Positions 1 to 22,482 of a DNA stretch of 64,000 nt are shown piece after piece; the stretch's first letter is position 1, and each line of letters begins with the position of its first letter. The position numbers were made by a program, and so were the translations under genes. The stretch comes from Leucoraja ocellata (Eukaryota). The stretch spans positions 1 to 64,000 of the forward strand of contig JAWMAR010003932.1 of NCBI GenBank assembly GCA_036785375.1, given 5' to 3'. The notes beneath the pieces are model-generated. The model was not told the origin of the DNA, searched no databases, and saw only the letters and a program-made list of their open reading frames with translations.

Positions 1-369
1 TGCGTTTTCACACCTATATATCTCGCCTCATGGGAGAGGGGAGAAGAGGTAGTGTCCGGGGTGACAATACTCCTTGATTATGCTTGTGGCCTTGCTGACA
101 GCGTGAAGTGTAATTGAAGTCAATAGAATGGACGTTGGTTTGTGTGATGGTCTGGGCTGCGGCCACAATTCTCTGCAATTCCTTGCTGTCTCAGATGGAG
201 CTGTTGCAAAACCAACGTGTGATGCACGCCGACACAATGATTTTTATCGCAACCAATGTTACATTGCTGAAGTAAAAGCCCCTTACAAACTGAAGCACTG
301 CAGTAGCTCATATTGACAACAGGTCATGTGTGCTGATTGAATGTTTGAATGTGGCAATGGAACATGGGT

Positions 370-612
370 CGTTTAGCCACAAGGGCCACATCTAACACCC
401 TCTTAAATATAGCAAATGAACTGGCCTCAACTACCTTCCGTGGCAGAAAATTCCAGAGATTCACCACTCTCTGTGTGAAAAATATTTTTCTCATCTCGGT
501 CCAAAAGGATTTCCCCTTATCCTTAAAATGTGACCCCTTGTTCTGGACGTCCCCAACATCGTGAACAATCTTCCTGCATCAAGCCCGTCCAACCCCTGTA
601 AGAATTTTGTAA
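370..612 (-). mobile_element. CR1 3' fragment
   Basis: Matches 26220-26460. Confidence 0.8.
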
Positions 613-3454
613 CTAAAATGTGGAAACAGGTCCTTCATGCCAACTTGCCCACACAGATGAACATGTCCGCTCTAATCTTGACTCACCTGCATGCGTTTGA
701 CGTGAAGCCCTCTAAACCTGTGCTGTTCATGTAAGTGTCAATGTGTTTCCTAAACAGTGCAATAGTTCCTGTCTCAACTACCTTATCTGGCAGCTCGTTC
801 CCCTCAGATTATTATTAAATATTTTCCCCTCTACCTTAAACCTATGACCTATGGTCCTCATTGCACCTTTTTTGGGCAGGAGACTTTTCGTCTACCCGAC
901 ACATTTTTCTCATGAACGTATACTCTACACCTCTGAAAGGCCACCCCTCGTCCTCCTGCATGCAAGGATTTTGTCCCATCCTGCTACACCTCACACGATA
1001 GCTCAGGCCCTGGAGTCCGATGATCAGCCTTGAATCACCCCGGCAATTCTACAACACTGTACAGAGCCCTAACATTCACTACGCAGGTCGTCATCATGTT
1101 ACGTTTTAGAAAATGCAACACCTCACATTTTATTGTATGTAACATGCCAATGGGGCAACGAAGAATGTGCCCTGTATGTTATGTTTAATTTAATTAAGTT
1201 ATGTTTAGTTTTATAAATTTGACCGATTCCGGGCCGACCGGCGATTCACCTACACTAATACTATCGTCAAGTCAAGTCAAGTTTATTCGTCACATATACA
1301 TACGAGATCTGCAGTGAAATGAAAAGTGGCAATGCTCGCGGACTTTGTGAAAAAAGACAAACAAACAAACAACCGAACAAACTACAACAGAATGGAACAG
1401 AATCACATGTTATTTTTCATATTAAATATTGTGCGCGGAATGAAAAAGAGAAAAAATTGTCAATTAAAAAAAAAAATCGGACACACTAGGGAAAATGTGT
1501 ATGATTTTTAGGGCGGGTCTAAATAACTGCACGTCTTTGGAGCGCGGAAGGGATCCGGAGCACCCTGTCCCCACCCACACGGTCACAGGAAGAACGTACA
1601 AACTATGTACAATATGCACCGGTAGTCACGATGGAACCAGTTATCTGATACTGTAATGCAGTCACGCTACTGCTATGCCACCGTGTCGCCCTAAAGCTGA
1701 GGTGATCTTAAATGAATCTCAAGTTTTTGGACAAGTGTACTGGAAAGGTTTAGAGGTATATGGGATATTGCCCAACGTGTGGGGAAAAATAAATAGCTGG
1801 GATAGGACATCTTGGTCGCCATAGACGAGTGCATCTTAAGGGCCTGTTTCCGTGCTGTGTGATTATGACAATGCATTCCGACTGTCAACCGAACGGGGTA
1901 CATATAGGTGTGCACAATGCGGCGTTGGTGGCTTTTGGACAACAGTCTGACATTTGTGATTTTATTGTCAAAGTGGTCCAGCGCCGAGTGGAGAGCCAGC
2001 GAGATCGCATTCCACCTTATCTAATGTGGCGGTAGGCAAATTGTAGAGATTTCACGATTTTGATAGCCCAAATGTCCTAATCCTGCTCCTATCACTTATG
2101 AACTTATGAATACATCTATGAGACTAAACATGCATTTCCTATACCACCGAATTGTACCATCAACGAATGGAACTGCAATGTCTAGATTTTCCAATCAAAT
2201 CCAAAAAAAACGCAGATATAGAACATCGAACAGTGCACTCAAGAGCAGGCCCTTCAGCCCAAAACGTGTGTCTAATATTATGCCAAGGCTATCACTTATT
2301 TAACTACCCATAATTCTTATCCCTCTATTCCCTGCCCATACATATATCTGCCTATCTAAACGATTCGTAAACCCTACGAATCTTTTGGATAGGCAGGCCT
2401 GTATAGGCAGACATCGTATCTTTCACTAACACCAGTTCAGGCACCTACCATCCAACACTGTATAAAACGCTCCCGCACATTTATATTAAAGCTCTCGCTC
2501 TCACCTTAAAATTATGCCAGCTATTATTTGATAATTCCTGGGAAGAAGATTCTGACTTAATTATATATTCTTCTATCTGGTCTCTCCGTAACCTCCTGCG
2601 TTCCATAGAAAACAATCCAAGTCGGTCCAACTTCTGCGTATTGCTTATACCTCATAATCTCGGCATAATTCTGGTAAAGGGTTTGAAGAAGGGTCCCGAC
2701 ACAAAACGTAACACATCCTTTCCCCCCAGAAATGCTGCGTGACCGGCTGAGTTTCTCCAGCATTTTGTGTCCATCATTCTAGGATATCTTCACTGCACAT
2801 TTTCAAAGCCTCCACACCTATCATGTAATGGGGCAACTAAACCTGAACGCAATACTGCATATGAGGCCTGACCAAAGCATTCGAAATCTACATCATGATT
2901 TCCTGATATTTAAATCAATACCCCAAGCCATGAAAGCAGGCATATCATATGCCATCTTTATTTGAGTATCTACGTGTTTTGCCACTTTCAGGGAGTTATG
3001 GACGGTCTTCAAGATTTCTTTCCACATCTGTTCTATTAAGGATATCTGTATCTGTTCCCTTATATTAGAGATCTTTGATACTGAAATCTTGAACAACCTT
3101 CAGCCTGACTTTAGGAGGGGGATAAAGCACGGTGTTGGAGTAACTCAATACCTGATGACAATTGAGGAATTTACAGTGTACAGATGCACGAGAAACGGAA
3201 TAACATGAATCATGATTAGTGCAAGATAAAGTCCAACAAATCAAATCAATGATAGTCCGATGGTCTCAAATGAGGTATCGATTCAATGGAAGGGGATTTT
3301 GTTTGTGTGATGGTCTGCGCTTCATCCAAAATTATCTGCACTTTCTAGCTGTCTTGGGTGGAGCTGTTCCGAAACCATGCTGTGATACATTACACTAAAC
3401 CTCTCCTATCCACGTAGCTATCCAAAAGGTACCGGTCACAGATAATTTGGAAAC

Positions 3455-3765
3455 TCCATGCACGCGATGGCACAGTGGAGGAATTGCTGCCTTACAGCGC
3501 CAGAGACCTGGATTCACTACTGTCTATGGGCGCTGTCTGTACATGGTTTGTACGTTTTCCTCGTGACCGTGTGGGTTTTCGTCGGGTTCCCTGATTTCAT
3601 TCCACACTCTAACGATATGCAGGTTTGGAAGCCAATGACCAGTAAATATTGTTAATTGTCCTTGGTGTGTAGGGTGGTGCTAGTGCACGGGGATTGCCAG
3701 TCTACGCTGACTCAGTGGTCCGAAAGAGCTGTTTCCACGCTGTATCTCTAAAGTAAACAGAACTA
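3455..3765 (+). mobile_element. V-SINE (HE1-like); further degenerate copies at about 1480-1690(-), 5480-5800(+), 19290-19610(+), 31985-32250(-), 37460-37610(+), 44100-44325(-)
   Basis: tRNA-like head TTGCTGCCTTACAGCGCCAGAGACC, V-domain TTTGTACGTT..CGTGACCGTGTGGGTTTT..CCCACACTC, CR1-like tail. Confidence 0.7.
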
Positions 3766-4001
3766 AACACACACAGCACCCAAGATCAGGATCGAACCTC
3801 GGTATGTGGTGCTGCGAGGCAGTAACAGTACCAGCTGTGCCACTGTACCACCCTTCGGCAGTGTACATATCCACTGATCGACTACATGAACAGACAGGGG
3901 TTAAAGATTTTTGGTAACGTTCAACAAGCTGTACCTAAATAGTTAATTTAATTTCAACTGGCAGCGAACAATACATCCTGAATCAGCTCGACCGTACAAG
4001 T

Positions 4002-4154
4002 ATTTGCATTTTATTATCTTTTTGACAGCCAGTACGTTACATGTTCATTCATCCCTGCCCAAGTTAGAGTGGTGAAGATTCATTGCTTTTGCCGAATGCC
4101 ACGTAGCAAATGGAGCCAACTTTGCGGTTAAGTGGCTCTCAGGCACATAAAAAG
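4002..4154 (+). promoter_or_regulatory. Proximal promoter of defensin-like gene
   Basis: CATAAAAAG at 4146-4154 about 50 nt before ATG; RUNX-type TGCGGTT 4123-4129; octamer ATTTGCAT 4002-4009. Confidence 0.5.
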
Positions 4155-4204
4155 CCTGTTTTCCACAACACACATCACCACGAGTCTCACAACTCACCGG
4201 GAAA

Positions 4205-4256
4205 ATGAACCCCATTTGTCTCCTCCTGGTTCTCCTCATTGCAACCGCCGCCGTCG
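4205..4256 (+). CDS. Beta-defensin-like gene exon 1 (signal peptide MNPICLLLVLLIATAAV)
   Basis: ATG in AAAATG context, Leu-rich core, consensus donor G|GTAAGT at 4257, phase 1. Confidence 0.8.
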
Positions 4257-6538
4257 GTAAGTATTTATCTGAGAAGGTCCCTGGATATAAAAGGTGACCG
4301 AGTTTGTGATTCAGTTTTGTTGATTGTCACTTATGCTGAGACACTGTGAAAAGCGTGTGTAGGGTGCTAACAAGTTTGCGGAAAGTCATGCATGGTTACA
4401 ATCGATCCGTCCACAGTGTACAGAGCCATGATCAAGGGAACAACGTGTATTAGAAGTTGGAGCCAGCAAATTCTGATCACAGATAGTCTGTGGGTCTCCA
4501 ATAAGGTAGATAGTAGTTCAGGGCAGATCTCTGGTCGTTGGTAGCATTGATATGTTGCCTCATAACATTTGAGAAGAAATCGTCCCTAAGTCTGGAGGGA
4601 TGCGTTTTCACACTTCTCTACCTCTTTCCCGAGTTGAGAGGGGAGAGGAGGGTGCGACCGGTTTGCGACTCGTCCTTTATTTTGCTGCTTGCCTTGCTGA
4701 GGCAGCGTGAGGTGTCGATCACGGAGGTGTCAATCGAACGGAGGTTGGTTTGTGTGATGGTCTGGGCTGCGTCCACAATTCTCTACAGTTTCTTTCAGTC
4801 TTGGATGTAGCTGTTCACAAACCAAGATGCAATGCATCCTGAGTTGTTGGAGACAGATGGCTGTGAAGACCACGTCAATGTATTGTTCTAAGGTGCATCT
4901 TGACATTTTCATGATTAGTAAGTATGTTATGGGTTATGGAGCGAAGGCAGGAACATGGGTTCAACAGGGAATGATGAATCTGCCAGGAATGAACGGCGGG
5001 GTAGATTTGATGGGTCGAATGGCCTAATTCTGCTTCTAGAACGTATGACTTATCAAAATCTACAATAAATCTGTTATACTAGGCAGGCATTGAATGGAAA
5101 GTGAGAAGGAGGCGATCTACCTTGAATCAATTGCCTGAGAAGAGGAACCGTGATTTGGGTTTCATTAAGTTATTATCAGCATTAAAGCCTATCGCTAGAG
5201 GTATTCCCTGTCAGTGTCGGGATGTTACTCTATCCTACCTGTTGATCTATTGGGAAATGGTAAGATGGTGTAGCTTGAATAGTGATTATTTACACGATTA
5301 CTTAAATACAATAATAACAGAATTATGTTTATTTCACAGATTCTTATCCAGATGGTGCGAAAGGTAATGCGTTTCCTTCGGTTTATCTTTCCATTTAGGA
5401 ACAATAGAATACTGGTATGTAGTTTAAAAAAAACACGGATTTAGAACCTCTTTCTAATTTAACGAGACCATTTTTTAACAGTGACGCAGCTGGTAGCGTC
5501 GCTGCCTCACAGCGAGTTTGATCTTAACCTGTCTCTGCGGAGTGTGCACGTTCTCCCTACAAACAACGCCTAAACGATCTATTGCCGCAACAGGCAAATC
5601 GTACGGATATGCTGGCTATGGTAATTCCTTTCTTGCTGAATTTAATCTCCATGTATACCAACGTGCGGGTCAACTTTAAATTGTCCCTTATTGGTAGAGA
5701 TTGGATACAAAAGTAGAATAACATAGCGTGAACGGGTGATAAATGGGCGGCGTGGATTTGGTGGCCAGAGGGTATGTTTCCATGCTACACCTCTAAACCT
5801 AAGTATCCAGCTCCTGATTCACGCAACCGTTATGATTTATGGAAATACATTATGATTCGGAAGAGATTAGAGAGCAATGGGCCAAATGCAGTAACCTGGG
5901 GCAATTTGGAGTGCCAAGTGAAACAATATTGTCAGATATCAAAGTCTCTCCTCATCCCATCACAGGCTAAGTGTTAGAAAATTGTAGACACAAGGCAGTG
6001 CAGCAGCTGGTTTACACAAATGGACACATCACTGGAGAACATGGAGATGACTTTTCAGGATGGATTAAAAAAAGGTCCATCCGATCCCTTAAAATATTGG
6101 GTTAAAGTTCGTTGAGCGTATGGCAGCACTGGGCCTGTAATCGCTGGAATTTAGGATAGGGAGACCTCACTGAAACTTACCTACTAAGTGAAAGGCCTGG
6201 ATAGACTGGATTTGGACATTATATTTCCATTAGAGGAAGAATATAGGAACATAGGCCACTCTCTCTGATTTTATGAAGTGCCTTTAGAAAGAAGACGAGG
6301 ATACATGTATTTAGTCGGAAGGTGGTGAAACGGTGGAATTCTTTGCCACGAATGGCTGTTGGTGCTAAGTCATTGGATTTATTCAAGGTGGATATTGATA
6401 TATTCTTGATTACTACAATTGTCACGGATTATGAGAGGATAGCAGGAGAATGTGGTTGCGAGGGAACAATAGATCAGCCATGAATGAATGGTGGAGTAGA
6501 CTTGATGGGCCGAATGGTCTAATTCGGCTCATATAACT

Positions 6539-6592
<54 letters not shown>

Positions 6593-8313
6593 CTTATTTA
6601 TATAGCACATTTTTAGTCAACTTGCATTGACCCCAAAGTGCTTCACATAATTACATTACATTTACACACAGGCAAAGGTGGGTGAAGTGTCTTGCCCCAA
6701 GGACACAACGACAGTATGCACTCCAAGCGGGATTCGAACCGGCTACCTTCCGGTCGCCAGCCGAACACTTAGCCCATTGTGCCATCTGTCGTCCCTTATG
6801 GACGTACGACTTATGGACGTACGAAGTGCAGATGCTGCATTACACAAAAGGACACGATGTGCTGAAGTAACACAGCTGGTCAGGCAGCATCTACGGAGAA
6901 CATGGAAAGGTGACGGTTTGGGTCATAATGAAGAAGGGTCCCGACCCAAAACATTACCGATCCATGTTCTACAGAGATGCTGCCTGACCCGCTTAGCTAC
7001 ACCAGCTAAAGTGTTAGAACAATTAGATCACATCAGGGTCTCGTTGAGAGACTGGTGGTCCGACGTACCCCAAGGTTTAATGAAAACTGCATTTGACTGA
7101 CTTCAAATGCTCACATCGAATTAATTGCATATAACATTCTTGGCTCTACCAATGGCTCTACCAGCTCCACCACTTGGCTTACTTGTAGCTCAACATCTCG
7201 TATAATATTAGCTACTGTCAGGAACAGACCAGGAGCTGGCTGGGAGACTATTATTGGGCAAAATGCGAACTGGTGGGGCTAGTGTAGTGCAGCTTGGTCG
7301 GCAATGGCAAATCGGGTCAGAGGGCCTGTCTCCGTGATTTATACCAATGCATCTCCAAACACTTACTTCTTTGTGATGTTGGGGAGAAAGGCGGCATCTT
7401 GAGGAAACTCACGCTGTTTCAGAGAGAACGTGCCGACTCCTTGCAGACTGCACTAAAAGTAAGCAAATCGTGTCTCTTGCTCATTGAAGTTATATCATGC
7501 ATGAGAGATGTAGCATTGTAATTGGCTGTCGGTTGGTGCCACACATTTCAAATAGACGAAGAGTTAAAACTTACCCCAGTGTGCCTTTCCGATTCACTAT
7601 GAAATGACACCACGTCTCTCTTGATTAACCAATTATGTGTCCATGTAATTTGTTAATCTTGGAAAAGACTAGACTTGTATTCACTGGAGTTTAGAAGGAT
7701 GAGGGGGGAATCCTCTAGATACATTTACAATTATAAAACGACTGGACAAGCTAGATGCAGGAAAAATGTTCCCAATATTGGGCGAGTCCAGATCCAGGGG
7801 CCACAGTCTTATAATAAATGGGAGGTAATTTAAAACTGAGGTGAGAAAAAAACGTTTTGACCCAGAGAGTTCTGAATTTGTGGAATTCCGTGCCAGAGAG
7901 GACAATGGAGGCCAAATCATTGTATGGATTTATGAGAGAGTTAGATAGAGCTCTAGGGGCTAATGGAGTCAAGGGATATGGGGAGAATGGAGGCGCTGGT
8001 TATTGATAAGGAAGGATCAGCCATGATCACAATGAATGGCGGTGCTGGCTCGAAGGGCGGAATGGACTCCTCCTGCACCTATTATCTATGAGGAGGAGAA
8101 CTGGATATTTTTTAGTGCCTTCCCTCACAGTGAATTCTGCTGTGGGGGGACGTTTCTTGTTGATTTCTATAGTGTACTGTTCTGTGTCTTTTTTCTTTTT
8201 CTTTTTTATTTTATATGGATTTATTGACATTTAATCTATTCAATTAGTTTAATCAATCTCTGTAAAGAACTTTGGTTCAAAGTGATTTTGTTTAAAAGTG
8301 CTATATAAATAAA

Positions 8314-8361
<48 letters not shown>

Positions 8362-8707
8362 GTTTCTATCTGTTCCTTGACAAGCGCTGGTTTCATGGAG
8401 CAGACAATTGCCTGCCAATGTCGTGCACTTTAAATATGTCACAGTTTCTGGCGCTGCTTTATTCAGCGCCTCTCTCTGGTCGCCATCAGAAGAAATGTTC
8501 ACAAGGAATTCGTTGTTTGATATTGTTTGATACTTTCAGCTTAATTTTCTAGTATCTCTGAAAAACGGCATATATTTTTTTTTTTAAGGAAAACCCGTAA
8601 AATGCAGTGATAAAGGTGGAATCTGCAAATCTAGGTGTGGGAAGAAGGAACTCAAATTAGATTATGATTGCAAACATAACAAAAAGTGCTGCTTCGATGT
8701 CTATTAA
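4205..8707 (+). CDS. Beta-defensin-like antimicrobial peptide gene, 3 coding exons (4205-4256, 5340-5363, 8589-8707), 64 aa: MNPICLLLVLLIATAAVDSYPDGAKGKPVKCSDKGGICKSRCGKKELKLDYDCKHNKKCCFDVY
   Basis: Hydrophobic signal-peptide exon ending G|gtaagt; last exon after poly-T+ag encodes C-x6-C-x3-C-x10-C-x5-CC; all introns phase 1; TATA-like box upstream and AATAAA downstream. Confidence 0.88.
5340..5363 (+). CDS. Beta-defensin-like gene putative 24-nt micro-exon 2 (DSYPDGAK)
   Basis: Acceptor ttatgtttatttcacag, donor AAG|gtaatg, symmetric phase 1-1; creates a plausible V-D-S signal cleavage site; lies in non-repeat sequence. Confidence 0.55.
6541..6795 (-). mobile_element. tRNA-derived CORE-like SINE with L2-type (TTA)n tail
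   Basis: A box TGGCACAATGG, B box GGTTCGAATCC, GTGTCCTTGGGGCAAGACACTTCACCC core, tail ...GTGCTATATAAATAAG(ATT)n. Confidence 0.8.
7655..8090 (+). mobile_element. CR1 3' fragment in defensin intron 2
   Basis: LDLYSLEFRRMRG motif and CR1 3' UTR. Confidence 0.8.
8091..8360 (+). mobile_element. Short element with L2-type tail and (TAT)n, inserted into a CR1 tail
   Basis: TGTAAAGAACTTTGG...AAAAGTGCTATATAAATAAA(TAT)n. Confidence 0.6.
8589..8707 (+). CDS. Beta-defensin-like gene exon 3 (mature six-cysteine domain GKPVKCSDKGGICKSRCGKKELKLDYDCKHNKKCCFDVY)
   Basis: Poly-T tract + ag at 8587-8588; beta-defensin Cys spacing with GGxC and terminal CC; Lys-rich; TAA at 8705-8707. Confidence 0.9.
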
Positions 8708-8793
8708 TCACGGCGTCTTCGAAAATAAGGTTGTCCCGCTCTTCAGCTGAGTTTCAACTGTCTCTCAATAGCAATTGGCTGTAGACATGTCGC

Positions 8794-8799
8794 AATAAA
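8794..8799 (+). terminator. Polyadenylation signal of defensin-like gene
   Basis: AATAAA 87 nt after the stop, followed by T-rich downstream sequence. Confidence 0.65.
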
Positions 8800-9345
8800 T
8801 GAACCTGTTTGCATCGATCACTGCTTATATTGTTATTTTCACTTCCAATAGTTTGTTTTTTTATTAACTTTTAGAAAGTTGTACACCGTGAATGATATTG
8901 AGCATATTGAATCAATGAGAATCGTAGTCATTTTCAATTGTTGGCCAAGTCCTGGGTGAGAATACAAGAGTGAATCCAATTGATTGATGATCTTGTAGAA
9001 CGGTTCAAAAGCATGGCTGGGTTAGATAGGGCAAGTACCAAGGATAGGCGAAGCAAGATGAAGAGAACTCAATTTAATGCGAGGAGAGAACGATTTAGTA
9101 GGGAAACGAGAGGCAGCGTTTCCAAACAGTGAATGCCGGATATATAGAATGAGCTGCAAAGAGGAACTAGGTAAGGCAACGGCATTAATAACATCTAACT
9201 TAGTTTGGACATGTCCGTGGGGAAAACTGGTTCAGAAGGATGTTGCAAAAAGGAGACAAATAGGATTGGCTTACATGGTCGAGCTGGGTCGACGATCCTG
9301 GTTCGATGCTGCATGACACCATGAGCGACAGAAGCGGGTTTAAGC

Positions 9346-10126
9346 TTCCGGTGGCGCTACTAGTCGGATGCCTCGCCTGCAGCGTGTTCGTTGTTTCGAC
9401 TTTTTTTTTTAATGTCGAAAAGTATGTTTTCGTGTTTCTCTGTGGGTTTTGTCAGGATGCTGGTGGGTGGGAATAGGGGGAAACCATTTTCAGGCACCTA
9501 CCTCGACGGTGATGCAATTTTCTTCCTTATCGCTCTTCCCCTCCATCCTCGCGGTCTTACAGTTGCTTTGGAGCGGCTTTTCCCGGAGTAGAGCCCAGCG
9601 CTTCACCGGCGGCGCAGCGGTGACTTTAACAACCGGGACACCATTGCCGGGGGTCGCCGGAGAACCGCTAAGACCGCTGGCCTGCGGCCTACAATATCTT
9701 GGAGCCCCGGTCTGTGAAGCTTCTAGCGGTAGACGTGGAGCGGAGCTTCCATCATGGAGAGGGCGATCACTCGCTGGGACAGTGGCAAGAGCTGCGACCG
9801 CTGGCCTGCTGCATACAACAGCTGCAAGCCGCGGTCTGCTCGACCTGTCCGACCGGCGTTCGGACCATCCCGACCAAAGGGCTTAACATCATGCCGTCCG
9901 TAGCGGTGACAAGGGAGGGTCAGGGCCCCGAACACGGGTGAGAACAAGGGAGGAGGAGGACAGTCTGAAATGTATAGCCTTCCACCCCAGTGAATAATGC
10001 TGCGGTGGATGTCTGTGTAGAATTACGTTGTGTATTGTATCCTTTTATAAATGTAACGCTGCATTTTAAATTACATTTCACTGCACCTTATGTTTCACGT
10101 GGCAAATACATTTGAACCTGACTTGA
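9346..10126 (+). mobile_element. GC/CpG-rich non-autonomous retroelement with Rex1-type tail; related copies at about 31385-31910(-) and 33676-34460(+)
   Basis: Shared 5' ..GCCTCGCC..CAG motif, T-rich block, CpG-rich body, 3' CATTTCACTG...AAAT...TTTGA tail. Confidence 0.55.
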
Positions 10127-10559
10127 AAATAAAATTACGGAATTATCAGAAAAATGCTGGAAGCACTCGGAGGTTAGGCAGCATGTGACAAAGCATGAAA
10201 AGATATCTGGGCTTTACGTTCCAAAAACAAAAAATGCTGGAGGATCTCAACTCGTCAGTTAACATCCGCGGACAAAACATGCAAGCGATCTTTCGCATCC
10301 AGAACTTCTTCATTCCAGAACGTTGTCCACACATTTCTTTACCACGGGTGTTGCCTGATCCTTTCATTTCCTCTGTTTATTGTTGAAGATTCCACCATTA
10401 AACATCTCTCGTGTCTTCCAGCGATAAGGCCCGAATCCATTACATTTCGTTCATTTTCTGTTTTATTCTAATCATGGCGTAAGATCGCTCATATTATTGC
10501 TCGCTTTGAGGCAAAGAGGCCTCATGCAGTCACACTGCTCCCACCAACCTCCGGCGCCC

Positions 10560-11000
10560 ATTCGCTCACTCCCCAGTAAACCAAGTGAGGCGTGCGCTCA
10601 AGTCGGTGAATCCAAGGAAAGCCGATGGACCTGATGGTGTACTCGGGAAAGTGTTTAAAAATTCTGCAGAGCAGCTTTCAGGGGGTTTTACCAAGTTCTT
10701 CAATCTTTCCCTGACATACGCAACCATATCACCTTGTCTGAAGTAAGCTACCATCATCCCTGCCCCGTAGTAGCCAGTCATAAATCGTCTCAATGACTAC
10801 AGACCAATTGCATTAACATCCGTAGAAATGAAAGACTAATTGCACAGCACATCAAAGCCAGCCTCCCTCCGAACCTTGACACTCATCAGTTTGCTTATAG
10901 AGCAAACAGATCGAGGGAGGACGCCATCGCCACTGCCCCCACACTGTACTGAGCCCTCTGGAACATCGGAAAGCTATGTAAGGATTGTTTTTATTGACTA
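10560..11000 (+). mobile_element. Degenerate Rex1/Babar RT fragment
   Basis: Homologous to 13500-13930 (KADGPDG, NDYRPIALT, HQFAYRANRS). Confidence 0.75.
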
Positions 11001-12018
11001 GTAGACTACGTGGCAAATAAATTTGAACCTGACTTGAAAATACAATTACGGAATTAATTGGATCCCATGTTCACATGGAAGGGCTGGTCCCCAACACAAT
11101 AATCCACCTCTCCAGCATTTCCAATATTGGTGGTCAGTTGGGGAGCTATCTGGAGCGCTAGTAGGGGCGTTGTGAGCCCAAGGAACTGGTTTCCAGAAGG
11201 CTAGTATGATCATCGTGGGCGGAATGGATTCTTGGGCTGGCTACTCAATCACTCAGGCCTGATGGGCTGGCACCTCAGTCACTCACGGCTGGTGAGCTGG
11301 CAGTTCACTCACGGTTATTCCTAGAAATTACAATTCAAGCAGAGTGCAGGGCAACAAATTCATTTCATACAATTTCAAACAGAGTGCTGGCCACCAAATT
11401 CATTTCATACCATTTCAAGCAGAACGCCTGCCATCAAATTCAATTGCAATTTCATACCATTTAAAGCGAAGTGCAGGCCACCAAATTCAAATGCAATTTC
11501 ATACCATTTCAAGCAGAGTGCAGGCCACCAAATGCAAATGCAATTTCATACCATTTCAAGCAGAGTGCAGGCCACCACATTCAAATGCAATTTCATACCA
11601 TTTCATGCAGAGTGCATGTCACCAAATTCAAATGCAATTTCATACCATTTCAAGCAGAGTGCAGGTCACCAAATTCAAATGCAATTTCGGAGCATTTCAA
11701 GCAGATTGCAGGCCACAAATGTCAAGGGAAAATTCTTATCATTTGGCCTTTATACTCCTGGCCACCAGGAAGGGGGCGTTAGGCTCATCATGGTGATTGA
11801 CAGGTGAGAGGATCAATGTTGATCTCAAGATGATTTAAACATCCATAACTTTTTAATTTTTAATTGATCGGAAAATATCCGCGGGGCTGCCACAGCGGAG
11901 GAGGGCTGTGAGTAAGATGGCCAAAAATCAAAGCGTTTTACAGTATGTTAGCGTTTTTTCTACAATCAATATAAAGCGCAGACAGGAAATGGTCAAGATG
12001 AGATTTTAGTTATGCAGA
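10998..12018 (-). mobile_element. Non-autonomous Helitron-like element carrying a 47-bp minisatellite
   Basis: Minus-strand 5' A|TC..TAACTAAAATCTCATCTTGAC, related to 13038 ff.; CTAG at the opposite end; no coding capacity. Confidence 0.45.
11335..11725. repeat. 47-bp tandem minisatellite, about 8 copies
   Basis: Unit CAGGCCACCAAATTCAAATGCAATTTCATACCATTTCAAGCAGAGTG (starts at 11474, 11521). Confidence 0.9.
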
Positions 12019-12029
12019 TAGCTGAGCTT

Positions 12030-12715
12030 TTAATACGATCACCCCTGACATACTAGTCAACAAGTTGTGGGACTTAGACTTCCCCCTCTCATCTGCGCAT
12101 GGATAAAGGACTTTCGCACAAACCGCCCACAACAGTCAAAATGGGCCTCCACTGCGCCTCCACCCTCACACTAAGCACTGGTTCTCCACAGGGCTGTGTG
12201 CTGAGTCCACTCCTCGATGCTCTGTTCAACTATGAATGCACTCCCATCCACTCCACAAGCTCCATTATTAAATTCGCGGATGATACCGTTCTGCACACCG
12301 CTCTCACTCATGTTGACAGCCAGAAGGGTGGCTACGTGAGCATGCTGTTCATAGACGTCACTTCAGCTTTCAATTCGATGGTCCCCCACCAGACTGGCCG
12401 AGAAACTACAGGAATTTGGGCTCATCACCTCCCTGTGTGCCTGTGTCCTGGACTTTCTCTCCACCAGGCCCCAGGTGGTGGGAAATTCATCGAAGTCCCT
12501 CACCCTGAGGACATGATCCACCCAGAGTTGCGTCCTCAGCACCCTACTGTACTCACTCTATACACATGACTACGTGACTAGGTTCAACTCCAACTCGATA
12601 ATCAAGTTTGCTGATGACACTCTGGTGGTGGGCCTGATCTCAGACACCGATGAGAAGGCCCACCGGTTGGAGGTGGCTGATCTGGCACTCTGGTGTTAGG
12701 CCAACAACCTCCTAC
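12030..12715 (+). mobile_element. Two rearranged Rex1/Babar RT fragments
   Basis: [13 protein letters not shown] and IIKFADDT motifs occurring twice, out of order. Confidence 0.75.
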
Positions 12716-13035
12716 ATGGAAACATAGAAACATAGAAAATATGTGCAGGCGTAGGCCATTCAGCCCTTCGAGCCTGCACTGCCATTTATTATGATCATGG
12801 CTGATCGTCCACTATCAATAACCTGTGCCTGCCTTCTCCTCATATCCCTTGACTCCACTAACTCCTAGAGCTCTATCTAACTCTCTCATAAATCCATCCA
12901 GTGACTTGGGTGAAAAAGTGTTTTCTCACATCAGCCTTAAATGGCCTCCCCTTTATTATAAGACTGTGACCCCTGGTTCTGGACTCGCCCAACATTGGGG
13001 ATATTTTTTACTGCATCTAGCTTGTCCAGTCCTAT
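12716..13035 (-). mobile_element. CR1 3' fragment
   Basis: (TTCTATGT)n tail and 3' UTR. Confidence 0.8.
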
Positions 13036-13221
13036 TATCTATCTTTATTAATAAAACTCTGTTCTTGACAGCTTTTGCCGATCTTTGCTGCGATTTCCGA
13101 GAGAACGCCGCCACCTACGGCCGTTATTTTTGGCCATCTCGCTCAGAGCCCCCCCCCCCCCCCCCCCGTCTGCCGCATGTGTGCCGAGGATTTTTCCCGT
13201 CGAAGAAATGTGACCGAGATA

Positions 13222-15068
13222 CAGCTCATCCAGGGCCAATCTGAAAACGGGAATTAGGATTGCTAAATTCAATCATAAACGGCGGATTGAGGAGCAATTC
13301 CATAACAACTCTGACCCCAGGCGCATGTGGCAAGGACTCAAATCCCTTGCCGATTACCAGAAAGTTAACACCCCTCCCCCAGACAACGCCACCCTGCCTG
13401 ACGAGCTAAACCACTTCTATGCTCGCTTTGACCGGGCCAACAAAACTTCAGCCATTAAAGTTGCTCCACCCCCGAATGAACAACCTCTCAGCCTCTCCAC
13501 CTCTGCTGTACAAGTAGCACTGAGCAAGGTGAATGAGCGCAAAGCTGCCGGCCCCGATGGCATCCCTGGCCGGGTGCTTAGGGCATGTGCTGGACAACTA
13601 TCCCCAGTCCTCGCCGACATTTTCAATCTCTCACTGGCCCAGGGTGTTGTCCCCACTTGCCTCAAGACATCAACCATCGTGCCAGTGCCCACACAGTCAG
13701 CTACAGGGAGTCTCAACGATTTCCGCCCAGTGGCACTCACCCCTGTCATTGCAAAGTGCTTTTAGCGGCTGATCTTGGCTCACCTCAAAGCCTGCCTCCC
13801 CCCCACACTGGACCCCCATCAGTTTGCCTACCAGACCAACAGGTCTACAGAGGACGCCATATCGGCGGACCTACACTCTGCCCTGACCCACCTGGACTAC
13901 AACAACTCCTACATCAGGCTGCTGTTCATTGACTTCAGCTCAGCCTTTAACACCGCCATCCCCGGCAGCTTGATCACCAAACACAGTGGACTTGGCATCT
14001 CCACCTCCCTCTGCAACTGGACACTGGACTTCCTCACTAACAGACCACAGTCTGTTAGGGTCAATAACCTCACCTCCTCCACTATAACACTGAACACCGG
14101 AGTGCCACAGGGCTGTGTGCTCAGCCCTCTCCTCTACTCCCTCTTCACGCACGACTGCGTCCTAAAGTACGGATCCAACGCTATTATTAAGTTTGCTGAC
14201 GATACCACGGTAGTAGGACTGATCAGCGACAACGATGAGTCAGCCTACAGGGAGGAGATCCAGCACCTGACAGCCTGGTGTGCCAACAATAACCTCGTCC
14301 TCAACTCCAAAAAGACGAAGGAGATTATTGTTGACTTCAGGCAGACCAGACGAGGCAGTCATACCCCCATCCACATAAACGGGACTGAGGTGGAGCGCGT
14401 CTCCAGCTATAAATTCCTCGGAGTACATATCTCGGAGGATTTGTCCTGGTCCCTCAACACCTCCAAGCTGATCAAAAAGGCACAGCAGCGCCTTTACTTC
14501 CTGAGGAGGCTCAAGAAAGCCCACCTGTCCCCCCGGATCCTGACCAACTGTTACCGCTGTACCATAGAGAGTATCCTGACCACCTGCTTCACGGTATGGT
14601 ACAGCAGCTGCAGTGCTGCGGACAGGAAGGCACTACAACGGGTGGTGAAAACCACGCAGCACATCATCGGTGCCCCGCTCCCTGCCATGGATGCCCTCCA
14701 CCGAAAACGGTGTCTGAGACGGGCTGGGGAGATCATCAAAGACCCCTCACACCCCAACCATGGACTGTTTGCCCTCCTCCCATCAGGGAGGCGGTACAGG
14801 AGCCTCAGGTCACGTACTAGTAGGATGAGGAACAGCTTCTAGAATAATACATTTACATTGCTGAACTCGGAGTCCCGCCGATAGATTTCTCCGGTCCCTC
14901 CGTCCCCATTGTTTAATTATTCTGTATTTTTTGATTATTCTGTATCTTCTCTCTTTCTATTTGTTTTTATTTCTTCATGCACAACTACTACGGACTGACG
15001 CAAAACTGCATTTCGTTGTACTCATACTTGTATTTGTGCGATGGCATTAAAGTTGAATTGAATTGAAT
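13222..15068 (+). mobile_element. Rex1/Babar non-LTR retrotransposon, 5'-truncated, near intact
   Basis: ORFs 13325..13765 and 13775..14842 in one frame with a single stop; [63 protein letters not shown]; (TTGAA)n tail. Confidence 0.92.
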
Positions 15069-15239
15069 ATTAATGTTTTATAACATTCCCCATTCTCTCT
15101 ACTGCCCCCGCTGGGAGCAGGGGAGGAGGGGACTATAAAACCCGGAAGTGTCCTGCTTCTATCAATTTCTGCCAGACCACGAAGTGAAAGGGTCACGGCT
15201 CTCTGAGCTGCAGCTCTACTCCAAGGTGAGTCCCCTGCA

Positions 15240-15520
15240 TATGTCTATTTGTCTATCTATATTTGAAGTGTGTATTGAACATGAAAAGCATTTGTATATT
15301 TGTCTATCTATATTGTGTTTGAAGTGTGTATTGAAAATAAAAAGCATTTGCAAATTTGTCTATCTATATTGTCTTTGAAGTGTGTATTGAACATGAAATG
15401 CATTTGTATATTTGTCTATCTATATTGTGTTTGAAATGTGTATTGAACATGAAATGCATTTGGTATATTTGTCTATCTATATTGTGTTTGAAATGTGTAT
15501 TGAACATGAAATACATTTAT
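15240..15520. repeat. 56-bp tandem repeat, about 5 copies
   Basis: TGTCTATCTA recurs at 15301, 15357, 15413. Confidence 0.88.
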
Positions 15521-15556
15521 TATTGTTATAAAGCGTTTGCAAATTTGTTTCTCTTG

Positions 15557-15808
15557 GGTTTTAAAATGGTTGCACCCGTTTTCAGGTGACTAAAGCATGA
15601 TGTCTTTGAAATGTTCATGTAAATTGAAATGCATTTGTTGCAACGTTTTCAGGCGCGTAATGCACGAATAAAGCTTTATTTTTGGATTTTAAAATGGTTG
15701 CACCCGTTTTCAGGTGAGTAAAGCATGATGTCTTTGAAATGTTCATGTAAATTGAAATGCATTTGTTGCAACGTTTTCAGGCGAGTAATGCACGAATAAA
15801 GCTTTATA
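15557..15808. repeat. 128-bp tandem duplication
   Basis: AAAATGGTTGCACCCG at 15563 and 15691. Confidence 0.88.
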
Positions 15809-16235
15809 TTTGGACCAGAACTGTGTTTAAATTTAAAATTGGCGCTCATTTTGTGATTTTGGCGGTTGCAAGATGGCGGCGATGACGTCATCTCCGGTGA
15901 TCGGGAAGCGACGGCGATGTCGTCATTTCCGGTGATCGGGAACCCAGCGGTGATGACGTAATTTCTGGTCGGAGGCAATATGGCGCTGCCTGCTGAAGAC
16001 AGAGTGCACGAGGGGTTGAAAAATTCTACAGAACTGGTAAATGTTTGTGTGTTTGTTGCAGCAAAAGCTGCATTGTCTTTCAGCCACAGAGAACAACAGG
16101 ATTTGAAGATTCGTTCAAATATTCGGCTGCTTTCTCTATGGTAAGCCTTTGTTGGACGTTATTTAAAAGCAGCAAGGTACACAAAATTGCTGGAGAATCT
16201 CAGCGGGTGCTGCAGCATCTATGGAGCGAAGAAAA

Positions 16236-16272
16236 TAGGCAACGTTTCGGGCCGAAACCCTTCTTCAGACTC
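16236..16272 (-). ncRNA. Minimal type I hammerhead-ribozyme-like motif within a Penelope pLTR-derived repeat
   Basis: Minus strand AGTCTGAAGAAGGGTTTCGGCCCGAAACGTTGCC: CUGANGA core, GGG/CCC stem II, GAAAC-GUU. Confidence 0.5.
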
Positions 16273-16867
16273 GAAAAGATTTAAAAGCAGCATTTTGTTT
16301 CATCAAAAGACTCTACAGCAGGATTTGAATATTCCTTTTGCNNNNNNNNNNNNNNNNNNNNNNNNNNNNNNNNNNNNNNNNNNNNNNNNNNNNNNNNNNN
16401 NNNNNNNNNNNNNNNNNNNNNNNNNNNNNNNNNNNNNNNNNNNNNNNNNNNNNNNNNNNNNNNNNNNNNNNNNNNNNNNNNNNNNNNNNNNNNNNNNNNN
16501 NNNNNNNNNNNNNNNNNNNNNNNNNNNNNNNNNNNNNNNNNNNNNNNNNNNNNNNNNNNNNNNNNNNNNNNNNNNNNNNNNNNNNNNNNNNNNNNNNNNN
16601 NNNNNNNNNNNNNNNNNNNNNNNNNNNNNNNNNNNNNNNNNNNNNNNNNNNNNNNNNNNNNNNNNNNNNNNNNNNTGGAAAGGAGAAACGGAAAATGGGT
16701 ACGAACATCTTGGCCAGTTACCACTGGGGATTGTGTCTGAAGTGCATAATTTACAGCCGTTGCCTTGCAGTTTTGACAACGGAGGAATGATTGTGCCTTG
16801 AAAAATCCCTCATGGGTAAATTGGTGTAAACTTACAACGGCGAAAGGAACTGTGGCAAAGATCATAT

Positions 16868-17107
16868 GTAGAAACATAGACATAGAAACATAGAAATTAG
16901 GTGCAGGAGTAGGCCATTCGGCCCTTCGAGCCTGCACCGCCATTCAATATGATCATGGCTGATAATCCAACTCAGTATCCTGTACCTGCCTTCTCTCCAT
17001 ACCCCCTGATCCCCTTAGCCAGGAGGGCCACGTCTAACTCCCTTTTAAATATAGACAATGAACTGGCCTCAACTACACTCTGTGGCAGAGAGTTCCAGAG
17101 ATTCACC
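16868..17107 (-). mobile_element. CR1 3' fragment
   Basis: Same tail and UTR as 52201-52440. Confidence 0.85.
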
Positions 17108-18078
17108 ATGTATTTCTGTATTTGTATTTCGTTTTGTCTAGTCTGGCAGTTCTGGACAGTCTAGTTTAATTGTTCGCAACGCCCATTGCGAAAGGCACTC
17201 TCGATGAAAGTTTAGCCTTGATAGCCTTAAGCGATCGAAGTGCTTTTTAAAAATTGTCTTTGCGCCATGACTTAGATGGAACGAACAAAGAAAACAGAAG
17301 AGCGAGCTAAGTCGTTGTTAAAGGATGCCCCGAAATGCAGGGCACGTCGTCCGAGCGAGCAGGTGGTGTAAACAGGTTCTCAAATCCGGAGGCAAAAGCG
17401 GGATTTGCCCTTGGTCGAACTGACGAAATGAAAGTAGCAATTCTCGAATGAAAGTCAAAGTGAAAGCGATAACATTGCGGTCATATTACATATACTTAAA
17501 TTACGAGGAAATTAATTGTAATTGGGTAGATACCTGGAATTGTGTACTGTCTGTGTTTAAATGTATGAGTCTGTGTATTATAGCTGTCAAACAGCTGACA
17601 GCTAAATTAGCGATACAGAATTCAAAACCCTTCGAAAACAAATAGATGTTTTGGATGATGTTGCGAAACAAGTAGAAAGTGTCAGTAGATGGCCCCAAAA
17701 ATGTCTGTGAACGTCTGTGTTTCCTGTGTAATGCACTGCACTGCTTGGCGGAACACCTATCACAACCAGTGCAGAATCAATGTAGCACGGCCTGTTTGGT
17801 CAGGATAAGGATTGATTTGCGAAAGAGGGTATCACGCGGTCTGAATGGGCGATAAACGCTATAAAGGACCGTGTAGGGTGCCCTTCCAGAGAAGGAGAGA
17901 ACCCTGGCCTTGGACGGTGTCACGAATGGTCACCACCTGTGCGCGTTTTTCTGTGCATTTGGGATTTGCGATAGTGTATGCGGGCACCTGAGTCTATGTG
18001 CCTTATTTGGTTGTGTAAGAAAATATCTTGCCGTACTAACCTGGTTGTCTGAATCCCGTGTCTTTTCCAACGTACTTT

Positions 18079-18096
18079 TGGCGTAGTCGGCAAGAT
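18079..18096 (+). promoter_or_regulatory. Retroviral primer binding site, tRNA-Ser
   Basis: TGGCGTAGTCGGCAAGAT, 17/18 match to the complement of the vertebrate tRNA-Ser 3' end (TGGCGTAGTCGGCAGGAT). Confidence 0.8.
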
Positions 18097-18171
18097 TCAG
18101 ATAACCGAGACTAATCATAAATCGGATCAACAGACAGTTAGTAAAATAAGCGGAGAACTGCAAAGAGAATA

Positions 18172-18830
18172 TGGCAAATTGACTACATCGTCCCGATGCC
18201 CATATGTCCGAAAAAGAAATATGCGCTCTCCATGGTGGACACTTACTAACCATATAACCATATAACCATATAACAATTACAGCACGGAAACAGGCCATCT
18301 CGACCCTTCTAGTCCGTGCCGAACACATAAACTCCCCTAGTCCCATATACCTGCGCTCAGACCATAACCCTCCATTCCCTTCCCATCCATATAACTATCC
18401 AATTTATTTTTAAATGATAAAAACGAACCTGCCTCCACTACCTTCACTGGAAGCTCATTCCACACAGCTACTTACTCGGGGATTCTAACACATTTCCCTG
18501 TCACTAAGGCCGATCAGGACCACACGTTCCATGGCCTACAACTGCTAATGGTCGTGTGTGGCACCCCATGGGGAATTCAGTCTGCCAACTGGTCCCAATT
18601 TGTGGGCAGATGATAATTGGGTGGAGTGGACCATCTTCATCCCGTGGACCATCCTAACCCCCTTCAAGCAGCAGGGCTGTTGGAGCGTATGACTAAAAGA
18701 GCAGACACGTGTGCTAAATCCGTCCCGCACGCTCAAGGACTGGGCCCTTGTGTCACTGCAAGCAGTAAACAATTTGAACCAGCCACTTGTGACAGGGGGC
18801 ACTCATGAGCCGACATCTGGCTGTTGGAGT
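18172..18830 (+). pseudogene. Retroviral integrase core fragment, frameshifted, split by a CR1 3' fragment
   Basis: D,D(35)E-region motifs; reading frame VDTY|SG rejoins across the insertion. Confidence 0.78.
18248..18469 (-). mobile_element. CR1 3' fragment with (TATGGTTA)n tail
   Basis: ACTTACT target-site duplication at 18241-18247 and 18470-18476. Confidence 0.85.
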
Positions 18831-18838
18831 CGAGCCAG

Positions 18839-19109
18839 ATGAAATGAAATGAAATGAAATGATTCAATTTATTGTCATTGTCAGTGTACAGTACAGAGAC
18901 AACGAAATGCATTTTTAGCATCTCCCTTGAAAGGGAGACACAGGGCGTCGCGGTGTGCCCGCGCCTGCCGCCGTACATTCCATTACAGGCAAAGGTGGGT
19001 GAAGTGTCTTGCCCAAGGACACAACGACAGTATGCACTCCAAGCGCGATTTGAACCGGCTACCTTCCGGTCGCCAGCCGAACTCTTAGCCCATTGTGCTA
19101 TCTGTCGCC
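18839..19109 (-). mobile_element. Same SINE head and core with a Rex1/Babar-type tail
   Basis: About 125 nt near-identical to 6668-6790; tail AAAATGCATTTCGTTGTCTCTGTACTG...ACAATAAA(TTTCA)n. Confidence 0.8.
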
Positions 19110-20399
19110 TCTAACGTTGACATTACGCCGGCGAAAGAACACCAGGAAGACTCCTGGAAGGAGTGGATATCTAACACGGCGGGAAGGCATTCGTTAAGGA
19201 GAAGATTGTTGTCGCAGCGCAGGTGGCATATGGTGATCGGGAATGTGCCTATCAAGAAAATGGTTAAACACCACTGTCGTATCTGCCTGCACCACCACTG
19301 CGGGCAGCGAGGTTCTAGGCACACACCACCCTCCGTGCAAAGAACGTACCCGACACAACTATTGTCAACTTGCCCCCCTCTCACCGTAAAACCTGTGCCG
19401 TGTGTTTTTCCGGAACTCCAGTTTCCATCCACACTCCAAAGGCATGCAGATTGGGCTAATCAGCGTGGTAAAATTGTAAATTGGCCCGAGTGTGTGAAGA
19501 ATGGTGTTTTTGTGCGGAGATCGCTAGTTGTCCCGGACTCGATGCGCCGAAGGGCTCATTACCGTGCTGTAAATCTAAACTATACTAAACTAAAGTAAAG
19601 TAGTGTAAAGTAAATTAATCTAGACTATTTGCTTTTGCACCAGAGGATAAAAACCGTGCCTGTCAACTCTATCTGTGCGTTTCACTTCGATTAACTGATG
19701 TTTAAAATATTTTATTTGCAGGCAAACTGTTCTCTCGGACTGAATGTTCTACAAACTACGTTGCTGACATTACTTGGCAGCGACTTCGTGAACCCATGTA
19801 TGCTTTATTCTCACTGTCATTTGAAAAGACGGCTTTATATCTAATCATCTTCGCAAAATACAATGTCATGTCAATAAAAATGTGGGTGCCTATTTTTTTT
19901 GCAATGGGAAGAGATGCTGGTAAACCAGCATGTGAGGGAGTCAAGGGTTGTGGGAAGAAGGGAGGAGAATGGGGGTACAAGGTAGAGATGCAGCAGCCAA
20001 GATTGAATAGAGAAGTAGATTGATGGGCCGAATGTTCTAATTCTGTTAATATCGCTTATGAAAACAGCACTTCCTTGCATGGATTTCACCTCGAGGACGC
20101 ATCCCGAAGCACCGGCCGAAGATCAAAGAGCAAGATACTCCACTATGCTGTACATGCACTATGCAAAATATACAGTGCCAACCATTTGCGCGGGTTCGTA
20201 ACTGAAGGTGCTGGGTATAAAGGCAAGGAGGTTGTATTGAACTTCGTTAACACATTGGTTTCATTAAGGCTGGGATATTGGACACTGCACGACGCAGCGC
20301 GAAAGCACGACAGACAGCGCAGCCAAGATTTACCAGAACAAGGTATGAATGACCTGCAGATGCTTGCACCAGGTCTGGCTGTGTATAGAGATACTGTAT

Positions 20400-21045: not shown

Positions 21046-21439
21046 CAGCAGGGAGTAGTNNNNNNNNNNNNNNNNNNNNNNNNNNNNNNNNNNNNNNNNN
21101 NNNNNNNNNNNNNNNNNNNNNNNNNNNNNNNNNNNNNNNNNNNNNNNNNNNNNNNNNNNNNNNNNNNNNNNNNNNNNNNNNNNNNNNNNNNNNNNNNNNN
21201 NNNNNNNNNNNNNNNNNNNNNNNNNNNNNNNNNNNNNNNNNNNNNNNNNNNNNNNNNNNNNNNNNNNNNNNNNNNNNNNNNNNNNNNNNNNNNNNNNNNN
21301 NNNNNNNNGACTGAGCTTCCAGCCAAAACATCCATTCGGCCCACAATTTGCATACTAGCCCTCTGGAATGCAGTCCCTTCGACACACAACACCATGTTAG
21401 CGCTCCAGAATGCACACCCCCACACACACACACTGGCCA

Positions 21440-22482
21440 GCAATATTGGGTGGGTGTGTGTGGGTGGGTGTGTGTGGGTAGGTGGGTGTGGATGGGCGTG
21501 TGTGTGTGTGGGTGTGTGCGGGTATGGGCGGGTGAATGTGTGTGTATGTGTGGGTGGTTGTGTGTGGGTGTGTGCGTGTGTGTGGGGGGGGGGGGGGGTT
21601 GTGTGTGGGTGTGCGTTTGTGTGTGAGTGGGTATGTGTGTGTTGGTGTGGTCGGGAGTGTGTGCAAATGTGTGCGTTGGTGACTGGGTGTGGGTGTGTGT
21701 TTGTGAGTGGGTGGGAGAGTGAGTGGGTGAGTGAGTGTGTGGGTGTGGGTGAGTGGGTGGGTGAGTGTGTGAGACGTATGAGTATGTGGGTGTACGTGTG
21801 CGTGCGTGTGCATGTGCGTGTNNNNNNNNNNNNNNNNNNNNNNNNNNNNNNNNNNNNNNNNNNNNNNNNNNNNNNNNNNNNNNNNNNNNNNNNNNNNNNN
21901 NNNNNNNNNNNNNNNNNNNNNNNNNNNNNNNNNNNNNNNNNNNNNNNNNNNNNNNNNNNNNNNNNNNNGTGACTGAGCTTCCAGCCAAAGCATCCATTCG
22001 GCCCACAATTTGCATACTAGCCCTCTGGAATGCAGTCCCTTCGACACACAACACCATGTTAGCGCTCCAGAATGCATACCCCCACACACACACACTGGCC
22101 AGCAATATTGGGTGGGTGTGTGTGGGTGGGTGTGTGTGGGTAGGTGGGTGTGGATGGGCGTGTGTGTGTGTGGGTGTGTGCGGGTATGGGCGGGTGAATG
22201 TGTGTGTATGTGTGGGTGGTTGTGTGTGGGTGTGTGCGTGTGTGTGGGGGGGGGGGGGGTTGTGTGTGGGTGTGCGTTTGTGTGTGAGTGGGTATTTGTG
22301 TGTTGGTGTGGGAGGGAGTGTGTGCAAATGTGTGCGTTGGTGACTGGGTGTGGGTGTGTGTTTGTGAGTGGGTGGGAGAGTGAGTGGGTGAGTGAGTGTG
22401 TGGGTGTGGGTGAGTGGGTGGGTGAGTGTGTGAGACGTATGAGTATGTGGGTGTACGTGTGCGTGCGTGTGCATGTGCGTGT
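21440..22482. repeat. (GT)-rich low-complexity repeat, present twice between gaps
   Basis: 21309-21821 is almost identical to 21971-22482. Confidence 0.85.

Follow-up and report, generated by a model that had tools for sequence, protein, structure and literature searches.

A chimeric beta-defensin-like gene in Leucoraja ocellata with the promoter and signal exon of a Gly/Tyr-repeat gene family

A stretch of 64,000 nucleotides of DNA from Leucoraja ocellata (contig JAWMAR010003932.1, positions 1 to 64,000; hereafter the window) carries on its plus strand a small gene whose last coding exon encodes a six-cysteine, beta-defensin-like domain. Homology comparisons show this gene to be a chimera: the promoter, the signal exon and the micro-exons, up to position 7343, are of the kind found in a family of genes for Gly/Tyr-repeat proteins (hereafter the GGY family), and the DNA from 7344 onwards is that of a defensin gene. 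The gene likely encodes a cationic peptide that is secreted for host defence at the donor gene's sites of expression and is under diversifying selection, a reading to which we assign a probability of about 0.7. The original prediction, made from the letters of the window, had described a functional, secreted beta-defensin-like peptide. Its beta-defensin-like character stands and is joined by signs of selection, but the first exons are not defensin exons and the chimera had been missed.

Homology switches between two gene families within an intron

The assembly searched comprised 3.44 Gb in 5847 contigs, which are denoted here by C-numbers; one of them, C428, holds both a second copy of the gene and a cluster of unfused defensins. 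In sliding comparisons the window matched GGY genes as far as 7343 and thereafter the defensins at C428:1504k and C428:1516k, through the last exon, the 3' untranslated region (UTR) and beyond. When bases 7150-7660 were used as query in a genome-wide search, the best matches of bases 10-193 of the query were GGY genes (E 3e-28) and those of bases 195-510 were two defensins (E 6e-56 and 1e-51). The other 34 of the 40 rows were short repeat matches with E 3e-9 or worse, which rules out that the switch in homology is due solely to shared repeats. Tree analysis of the 5' part placed the window gene as sister to one GGY subfamily (support 99/96), and that of the 3' UTR placed it with the C428 1504k and 1516k defensins (support 100/99), both trees being rooted at the midpoint.

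The two homologies extend well outside the gene. Upstream of 3301, collinear blocks of GGY homology interrupted by repeats reach base 1 of the window, and downstream of the 3' UTR homology to the cluster defensins persists blockwise to about 13028; the defensin-derived part of the intron is itself broken by repeats at about 7660-8367. In the donor family, homology to the window stops about 125 nt short of the long exon of GGY repeats, and no microhomology was seen at 7343/7344. Exon 1 and the micro-exons have their homologues in GGY genes. They are unrelated to the signal exon that the cluster defensins use, and no remnant of the latter was found in window positions 1-20000. Because both parent families are 12-25% diverged from the window and the junction is carried by two contigs, the fusion is old and an artificial join made during assembly is ruled out. 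The reading frame survived the fusion because all introns involved are in phase 1.

Gene structure

The exon coordinates, splice sites, phase 1 and stop codon of the original prediction are all present in the sequence (Table 1); the TATA-like box that it placed upstream corresponds to CATAAAA at 4146, and the AATAAA that it placed downstream to 8794. With three exons the coding sequence totals 195 nt, interrupted by GT-AG introns of 1083 and 3225 nt, both in phase 1. Exon 1 encodes a predicted signal peptide, called on hydrophobicity only (10-residue mean of 3.65), and a recount of the residues that follow it agreed with the 12 lysines or arginines (K/R) versus 7 aspartates or glutamates (D/E) reported earlier.

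The three exons proposed are thus in place, but their count may be incomplete, since an in-frame candidate of 27 nt lies at 5594-5620. This candidate is open, is flanked by AG and GT, is identical in 25 of 27 nt to its counterpart at C478:1092k and is unchanged in the C428 copy; its homologue, GGY exon 3, was present in 12 of 12 GGY copies examined. The gene may therefore have four exons, in which case the precursor would grow from 64 to 73 residues. The acceptor of the candidate has 9 pyrimidines at positions -20 to -4, compared with 11-13 in the 12 GGY copies, and on account of this weaker acceptor the exon may be skipped. Of 24 sequencing runs, four were mapped, over window positions 8365-9400 only; in the three RNA runs among them, which are of unspecified tissue, filed under a different organism code and each read in part (5-25%), no read fell on the last exon, a result that speaks neither for nor against transcription.

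Table 1. Features of the chimeric gene (window positions)
Feature	Position	Strand	Remarks
Upstream/promoter region	3301..4145	+	GGY-family origin; 82% identity to the C478:1092k GGY gene over 3301-4300
TATA-like box	4146..4152	+	CATAAAA; common to GGY genes
Exon 1, coding part (signal-peptide exon)	4205..4256	+	52 nt, 17 codons + 1 nt; ATG at 4205; GTAAGT donor, phase 1
Exon 2 (micro-exon)	5340..5363	+	24 nt, phase 1; CAG acceptor, GTAATG donor; homologous to GGY exon 2
Candidate extra micro-exon	5594..5620	+	27 nt, phase 1, in frame; KSYGYAGY core; homologue of GGY exon 3
Last GGY-derived intron stretch	7159..7343	+	77% identity, E 3.2e-28, to C478:1013103 and 663229
Fusion junction within the long intron	7343..7344	+	Found in both copies
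Defensin-derived intron part and last acceptor	7344..8588	+	71-72% identity, E 6.5e-56 / 1.1e-51, to C428:1505k / 1517k defensin introns
Last coding exon, six-cysteine beta-defensin domain (P0001) and stop	8589..8707	+	AAG acceptor, TAA stop; hypervariable between the two copies
3' UTR	8708..8815	+	AATAAA at 8794; 87.5% identity to the C428:1516k defensin UTR

The donor of the 5' part is a family of Gly/Tyr-repeat genes

Searches of the genome with the exon-1 region gave 37 matches, namely the region itself, the C428 copy, 32 full-length relatives at 76-86% identity and 3 partial ones. The relatives sit on C478, C791, C2285, C2480, C2130, C3107 and C4290. Twelve GGY copies were examined in part and eight were followed toward the gene end. 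The copies examined carry the same promoter, 52-nt exon 1 and 24-nt exon 2, with introns that differ in length. After exon 2 come an exon of 27-30 nt, a long repeat exon and then exons of 33-36 nt; the long exon consists of 44-54% Gly and 17-23% Tyr and is made of GGY repeats. The window gene has the promoter, the 52-nt signal exon and the 24-nt and 27-nt micro-exons by which the family is recognized. The long GGY-repeat exon and the repeat exons of 33-36 nt had no match in window positions 1-20000 or in 389 kb of C428.

A stop-bearing exon of their own was reached in 6 of the 8 GGY copies followed, the ends of the other 2 not being reached, and no defensin-profile match of 12 bits or more was found in 431,200 bases of GGY loci. 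Together these results rule out that GGY genes are long defensin precursors. Protein databases and the Atlas gave no naming or usable match for the GGY exon. Searches for protein homologues with the C428 peptide or with the defensin family alignment gave no match, and a search of proteins represented at 50% gave 11 matches, of which the 5 inspected were repeat proteins without sign of close kinship.

The family as a whole comprises about 30 tandem genes in units of near 24 kb, with phase-1 micro-exons and secreted Gly/Tyr-repeat products; their stop codon falls in an exon that still bears a donor site. On C478, between about 577k and 1092k, GGY genes form inverted near-identical pairs (668k and 1007k are identical over the 585 bases compared, 775k and 890k nearly so), which suggests a palindrome of several hundred kb or a mirror produced by the assembly. 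The C428 copy of the chimera carries an element of the long interspersed nuclear element (LINE) type, of 3.1 kb with a 912-codon open frame, at C428:1651831-1654906. Confined to that copy, the insertion falls at the place corresponding to window 3793/3794, some 350 nt before the TATA box; a second such element, 99% identical to it, precedes the C478:890k GGY gene between different flanks.

The last exon encodes a beta-defensin-like domain

The spacing C-x6-C-x3-C-x10-C-x5-CC reported for the last exon is as described, and the exon conforms to the pattern C-x6-C-x3/4-C-x9/10-C-x5/6-CC with GxC. Across the six frames of the window a loose six-cysteine motif occurred once, compared with 0 occurrences in 100 block-shuffled windows, which rules out a chance motif. 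The Pfam profile PF13841 (Defensin_beta_2) matched the last exon at E 2.5e-4, but with 21.9 bits against a curated cut-off of 22.2. The cysteine frame is conserved among relatives: the six Cys and the Gly are invariant in 16 of 16 aligned sequences, all from the same genome, and 11 of the 16 matched PF13841 at E 0.1 or better. When the PDB was searched by sequence, the three best of 5 matches were beta-defensins (E 0.2-1).

A structural model built on these 16 relatives had a predicted local distance difference test (pLDDT) score of 84 and the elements H5-8, E11-13, E20-23 and E32-36, i.e. a short N-terminal helix and a three-stranded antiparallel sheet. In fold searches with this model the top five VIA rows (Z 4.0-4.3) and the top ten Foldseek rows were beta-defensins, the best matches being human, crocodile and avian; root-mean-square deviation was 1.9 over 37 residues for 2lwl. 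The expected defensin fold is thus predicted and its top matches are beta-defensins, but absolute scores are low. From the fold match alone, disulfides C1-C5, C2-C4 and C3-C6 would be expected. Both versions of the last exon have 11 K/R versus 5 D/E. Sequence and model together support a beta-defensin-like domain. A WAP domain was ruled out in the profile search, as was a big defensin, given that PF14862 gave E 5.5 and that signal and domain are separated by only 9 to 18 polar residues, with no hydrophobic N-terminal domain.

With vertebrate beta-defensins such as 2lwl (human DEFB106/HBD6), 1fd3 (human HBD2), 7t9q (crocodile CpoBD13) and 7lzl (mallard AvBD3) the gene shares the six Cys, GxC, the terminal CC, the cationic character and the predicted helix and three strands, as well as a signal exon ending in phase 1 and an association with tandem clusters. 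Unlike them, it took its promoter, signal exon and micro-exons from an unrelated family; identity to these four is 20-35%.

Two versions of the gene differ mainly in the defensin exon

The whole window has a collinear counterpart in C428:1.648-1.803 Mb, with identity of about 98-99%, save for repeat insertions and a difference of 85 kb in a receptor array. Substitutions between the two copies of the gene number 37 in 4287 bases of intron (0.9%), 0 in 52 of exon 1, 0 in 24 of exon 2 and 1 in 108 of the UTR, compared with 25 in 119 (21%) of the last exon. Within that exon 17 of 38 codons differ (45% of the peptide), and all 17 replace the residue; the cysteine codons are untouched, and the codon next to the stop is the last to differ or to be followed by none that does, the differences ceasing one codon short of the stop. 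When 25 changes were placed at random 20,000 times, the lack of any synonymous-only codon was obtained in 4.1%, untouched cysteines in 1.0% and both in 0.035% (0.00035). Among 9 defensin pairs tested, the window/C428 pair had by far the largest exon excess (P 1.7e-16); the excess was mild in two others (P about 0.005) and lacking in the remaining six. The peptide contains 2 Tyr in the window version and 5 in the C428 version, and the two closest unfused defensins contain none. A milder form of this pattern is seen in the adjacent unfused defensins C428:1470k and 1475k, in which 9 of 36 codons differ, all with change of residue, between flanks that are 2.8% apart.

That the exon differences stem from sequencing errors is ruled out by an independent genomic run (X1), which has a contig with the C428-type exon and, downstream, a further haplotype. 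Contigs of this run drop variants and do not show the window version to be absent from it; their depths are uneven (41 at the exon, 29 at paralogues, 147-176 in adjoining DNA) and were not used for copy number. Both copies are intact in their ATG, frame, splice dinucleotides, six Cys codons, stop and AATAAA.

The rapid change of the last exon is likely to result from diversifying selection, and these signs of selection argue against dead sequence. It is very improbable that rearrangement left a fusion which is not expressed and whose exon has decayed or diverged freely. The lack of any transcript seen, the weakened acceptor of the 27-nt exon and, in the C428 copy, the 3-kb LINE-type element that sits some 350 nt ahead of the TATA box would suit this reading, but all gene signals are intact in both copies despite 12-25% parental divergence and 25 exon substitutions, and neutral decay cannot yield 21% in an exon beside 0.9% in the introns.

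The two versions are probably alleles, C428 representing the other haplotype. A more tentative alternative is that the copies are paralogues from a recent segmental duplication, or that the exon was converted from an unassembled third paralogue, so that part of the 21% would be imported or old. This would suit the Nei-Gojobori path counts inside the last exon, by which the proportion of synonymous differences (pS 0.20) is as high as that of nonsynonymous ones (pN 0.22; Fisher P = 1), as well as the large tandem duplications and the 85-kb copy-number difference of the region, and run X1, in which the C428-type exon occurs together with contigs both with and without the C428 insertion at 9185. 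However, end-to-end collinearity at about 98-99% is what is expected of a second haplotype, the assembly has other contig pairs 0.03-2% apart, and no third copy or donor for either version was found in the genome searches. A conversion tract would in addition need to coincide closely with the coding exon, the UTR being identical in 107 of 108 bases, and each version has some residues in common with the 1504k and 1516k outgroups that the other lacks.

Other defensins in the genome

The original prediction of a hidden gene was right as to a real gene, but this gene is not a lone one, as dozens of defensin-like exons are present in the genome. A PF13841 search of the genome, in which 150 candidates were scored, yielded 76 matches with E of 10 or better; 9 lay above the curated cut-off, 8 of them at defensin-like exons. 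Inspection of four weak matches added one further defensin (C352) and three sequences that are not defensins. Inspection revealed six-cysteine exons at six places on C428, at five on C352 and at several on C211, C455 and C563/C1662. With one C563 peptide as query, 61 matches were obtained at E 0.001, 46 without and 15 with an inner stop, counts of defensin-like exons being inflated by duplicated contigs. Near-identical arrays of such exons at a spacing of 7-8 kb were observed on C563, C1662, C4392, C2763, C2571, C3210, C4784, C3689 and others.

A common signal exon, 24-27 codons long and ending in a phase-1 donor, lies about 1-4 kb upstream of C428 1470k, 1475k, 1504k and 1516k and of the five C352 exons; for the C428:1604k gene and the arrays of C563, C1662 and other contigs no signal exon was found. 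The cluster defensins of C428 and C352 look like two-exon genes, with intervening micro-exons possible, as in the mammalian and the proposed ancestral form. In amniotes the beta-defensin cluster is syntenic with cathepsin B and TRAM2. One cathepsin B propeptide match was found in this genome, on another small contig (C2531), from which linkage to C428 cannot be read.

The beta-defensin genes BD1 and BD2 of a teleost, the sea bass, have three exons, with an exon 2 of 112-121 nt that holds most of the peptide and a tiny exon 3 of 22-25 nt (PMC8231796). The window gene resembles them in its three coding exons, on the first model, and in precursor length; it differs in that its middle exons are of 24 and 27 nt and all six Cys lie in the last exon; the equal number of exons is a coincidence. 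For sharks and skates, section 14 of a fish-immunity review gives transferrin, squalamine and kenojeinin as antimicrobial peptides and mentions no beta-defensin (PMC6795676), as against the dozens of defensin-like exons, most of them apparently in two-exon genes, observed here. In the accessible text of PMC10707392 the word 'defensin' occurs only in a reference. The literature searched, from which most subscription journals fall outside, held nothing on chondrichthyan beta-defensins, this chimera or the GGY family.

Proposed origin and role

The sequence shows that a GGY intron was joined to a defensin intron at 7343/7344 and that the defensin's own signal exon was lost. In the role that we propose, the precursor would enter the secretory pathway, its signal being cut after about residue 19, and a short polar Gly/Tyr/Lys linker encoded by one or two micro-exons would lead into the three-disulfide domain, which with a net charge of about +6 may bind microbial surfaces. 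The captured promoter would provide a new site of expression, where new microbial targets could drive the rapid turnover of residues and leave two very different versions, most likely segregating as alleles.

Several points weigh against this proposal. As to transcription, no transcript of the gene was observed. The PF13841 score is just below the curated cut-off, and no Foldseek match reached E 0.001 while the best Z was 4.3, values that are usual for 38 residues yet weak. The classical test for a ratio of nonsynonymous to synonymous rates (dN/dS) above 1 was not passed, though the synonymous steps all fall in multi-hit codons. The two copies could also be paralogues and not alleles. The 5' tree is rooted at the midpoint and lacks a one-clade test, and the GGY donor family has no database name that would indicate its function and tissue.

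A route of this kind has been proposed for scorpion venom peptides, for which a gain of regulatory DNA and signal through a phase-1 intron was inferred from shared intron position (PMC5308243). In both cases a peptide domain takes promoter and signal from the gene of a different secreted protein; here, by contrast, one can see both parents and the junction; the cargo is a defensin of a vertebrate, and there is no sign of venom use. The gene is a rare example of a gene born by exon shuffling whose two parents and single-base junction are still readable, which makes the capture of promoter and signal exon directly testable by expression.

The same chimera could encode a defensin-fold ligand, i.e. 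a sperm-surface or reproductive-tract factor, a receptor ligand or a venom-gland-type peptide, with a host or prey target and sexual or receptor co-evolution as the cause of change; we regard this as unlikely. Non-antimicrobial peptides with the same fold do occur lower in the fold-search lists, phase-1 capture of a tissue-specific promoter and signal exon is the scorpion venom route (PMC5308243), and the charge count is equal in both versions (11 K/R, 5 D/E) while most other surface residues change. On the other hand, the peptide is cationic, and beta-defensins of host defence rank first among its matches in both structure and sequence. Highly divergent alleles are, moreover, known at an antimicrobial-peptide locus, frog brevinin-1, where population data point to their being balanced (PMC2582982). 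The host-defence gene proposed here has in common with brevinin-1 very different versions and an excess of amino-acid change; it differs in that allelism is inferred from two contigs and that the product is a disulfide-rich defensin and not a helical peptide. A peptide difference of 45% between copies otherwise 99% identical is at the level of strongly selected immune genes and offers two natural peptides for comparison.

Skate egg-capsule proteins are rich in Gly and Tyr. A further, rather doubtful suggestion is that the GGY proteins are structural proteins of the egg capsule made in the oviducal gland, and that the defensin is co-secreted by the mother and tanned into the matrix through Tyr of the linker and surface, the two alleles, 45% different, being kept by balancing selection. 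The GGY-rich M2 modules of the squid structural proteins called suckerins (PMC9999432) are like the donor family in composition (Gly/Tyr, GGY repeats), and in composition only. The antimicrobial substances of elasmobranch egg jelly are described as not identified (PMC11496042), and if the donor is oviducal the gene would be a candidate for the antibacterial factor of elasmobranch eggs. The egg-capsule suggestion, if true, would name that factor and would show that an immune effector of a vertebrate arose by capturing the promoter of a structural gene.

Other features of the window

On the minus strand the window contains a tandem array of GPR139-like single-exon receptor genes (28503-29426, 40241-41167 and 58767-59552), and it is here that the window and C428 differ by about 85 kb. 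Also on the minus strand, 49849-55596 holds retroelement-like frames interrupted by a LINE insertion, which from their motifs we take to resemble a tyrosine-recombinase (DIRS-type) retroelement. A tandem repeat made of units of about 94 bp occupies 11331-11744, and a duplicated CA-rich block lies at about 21300-22650.

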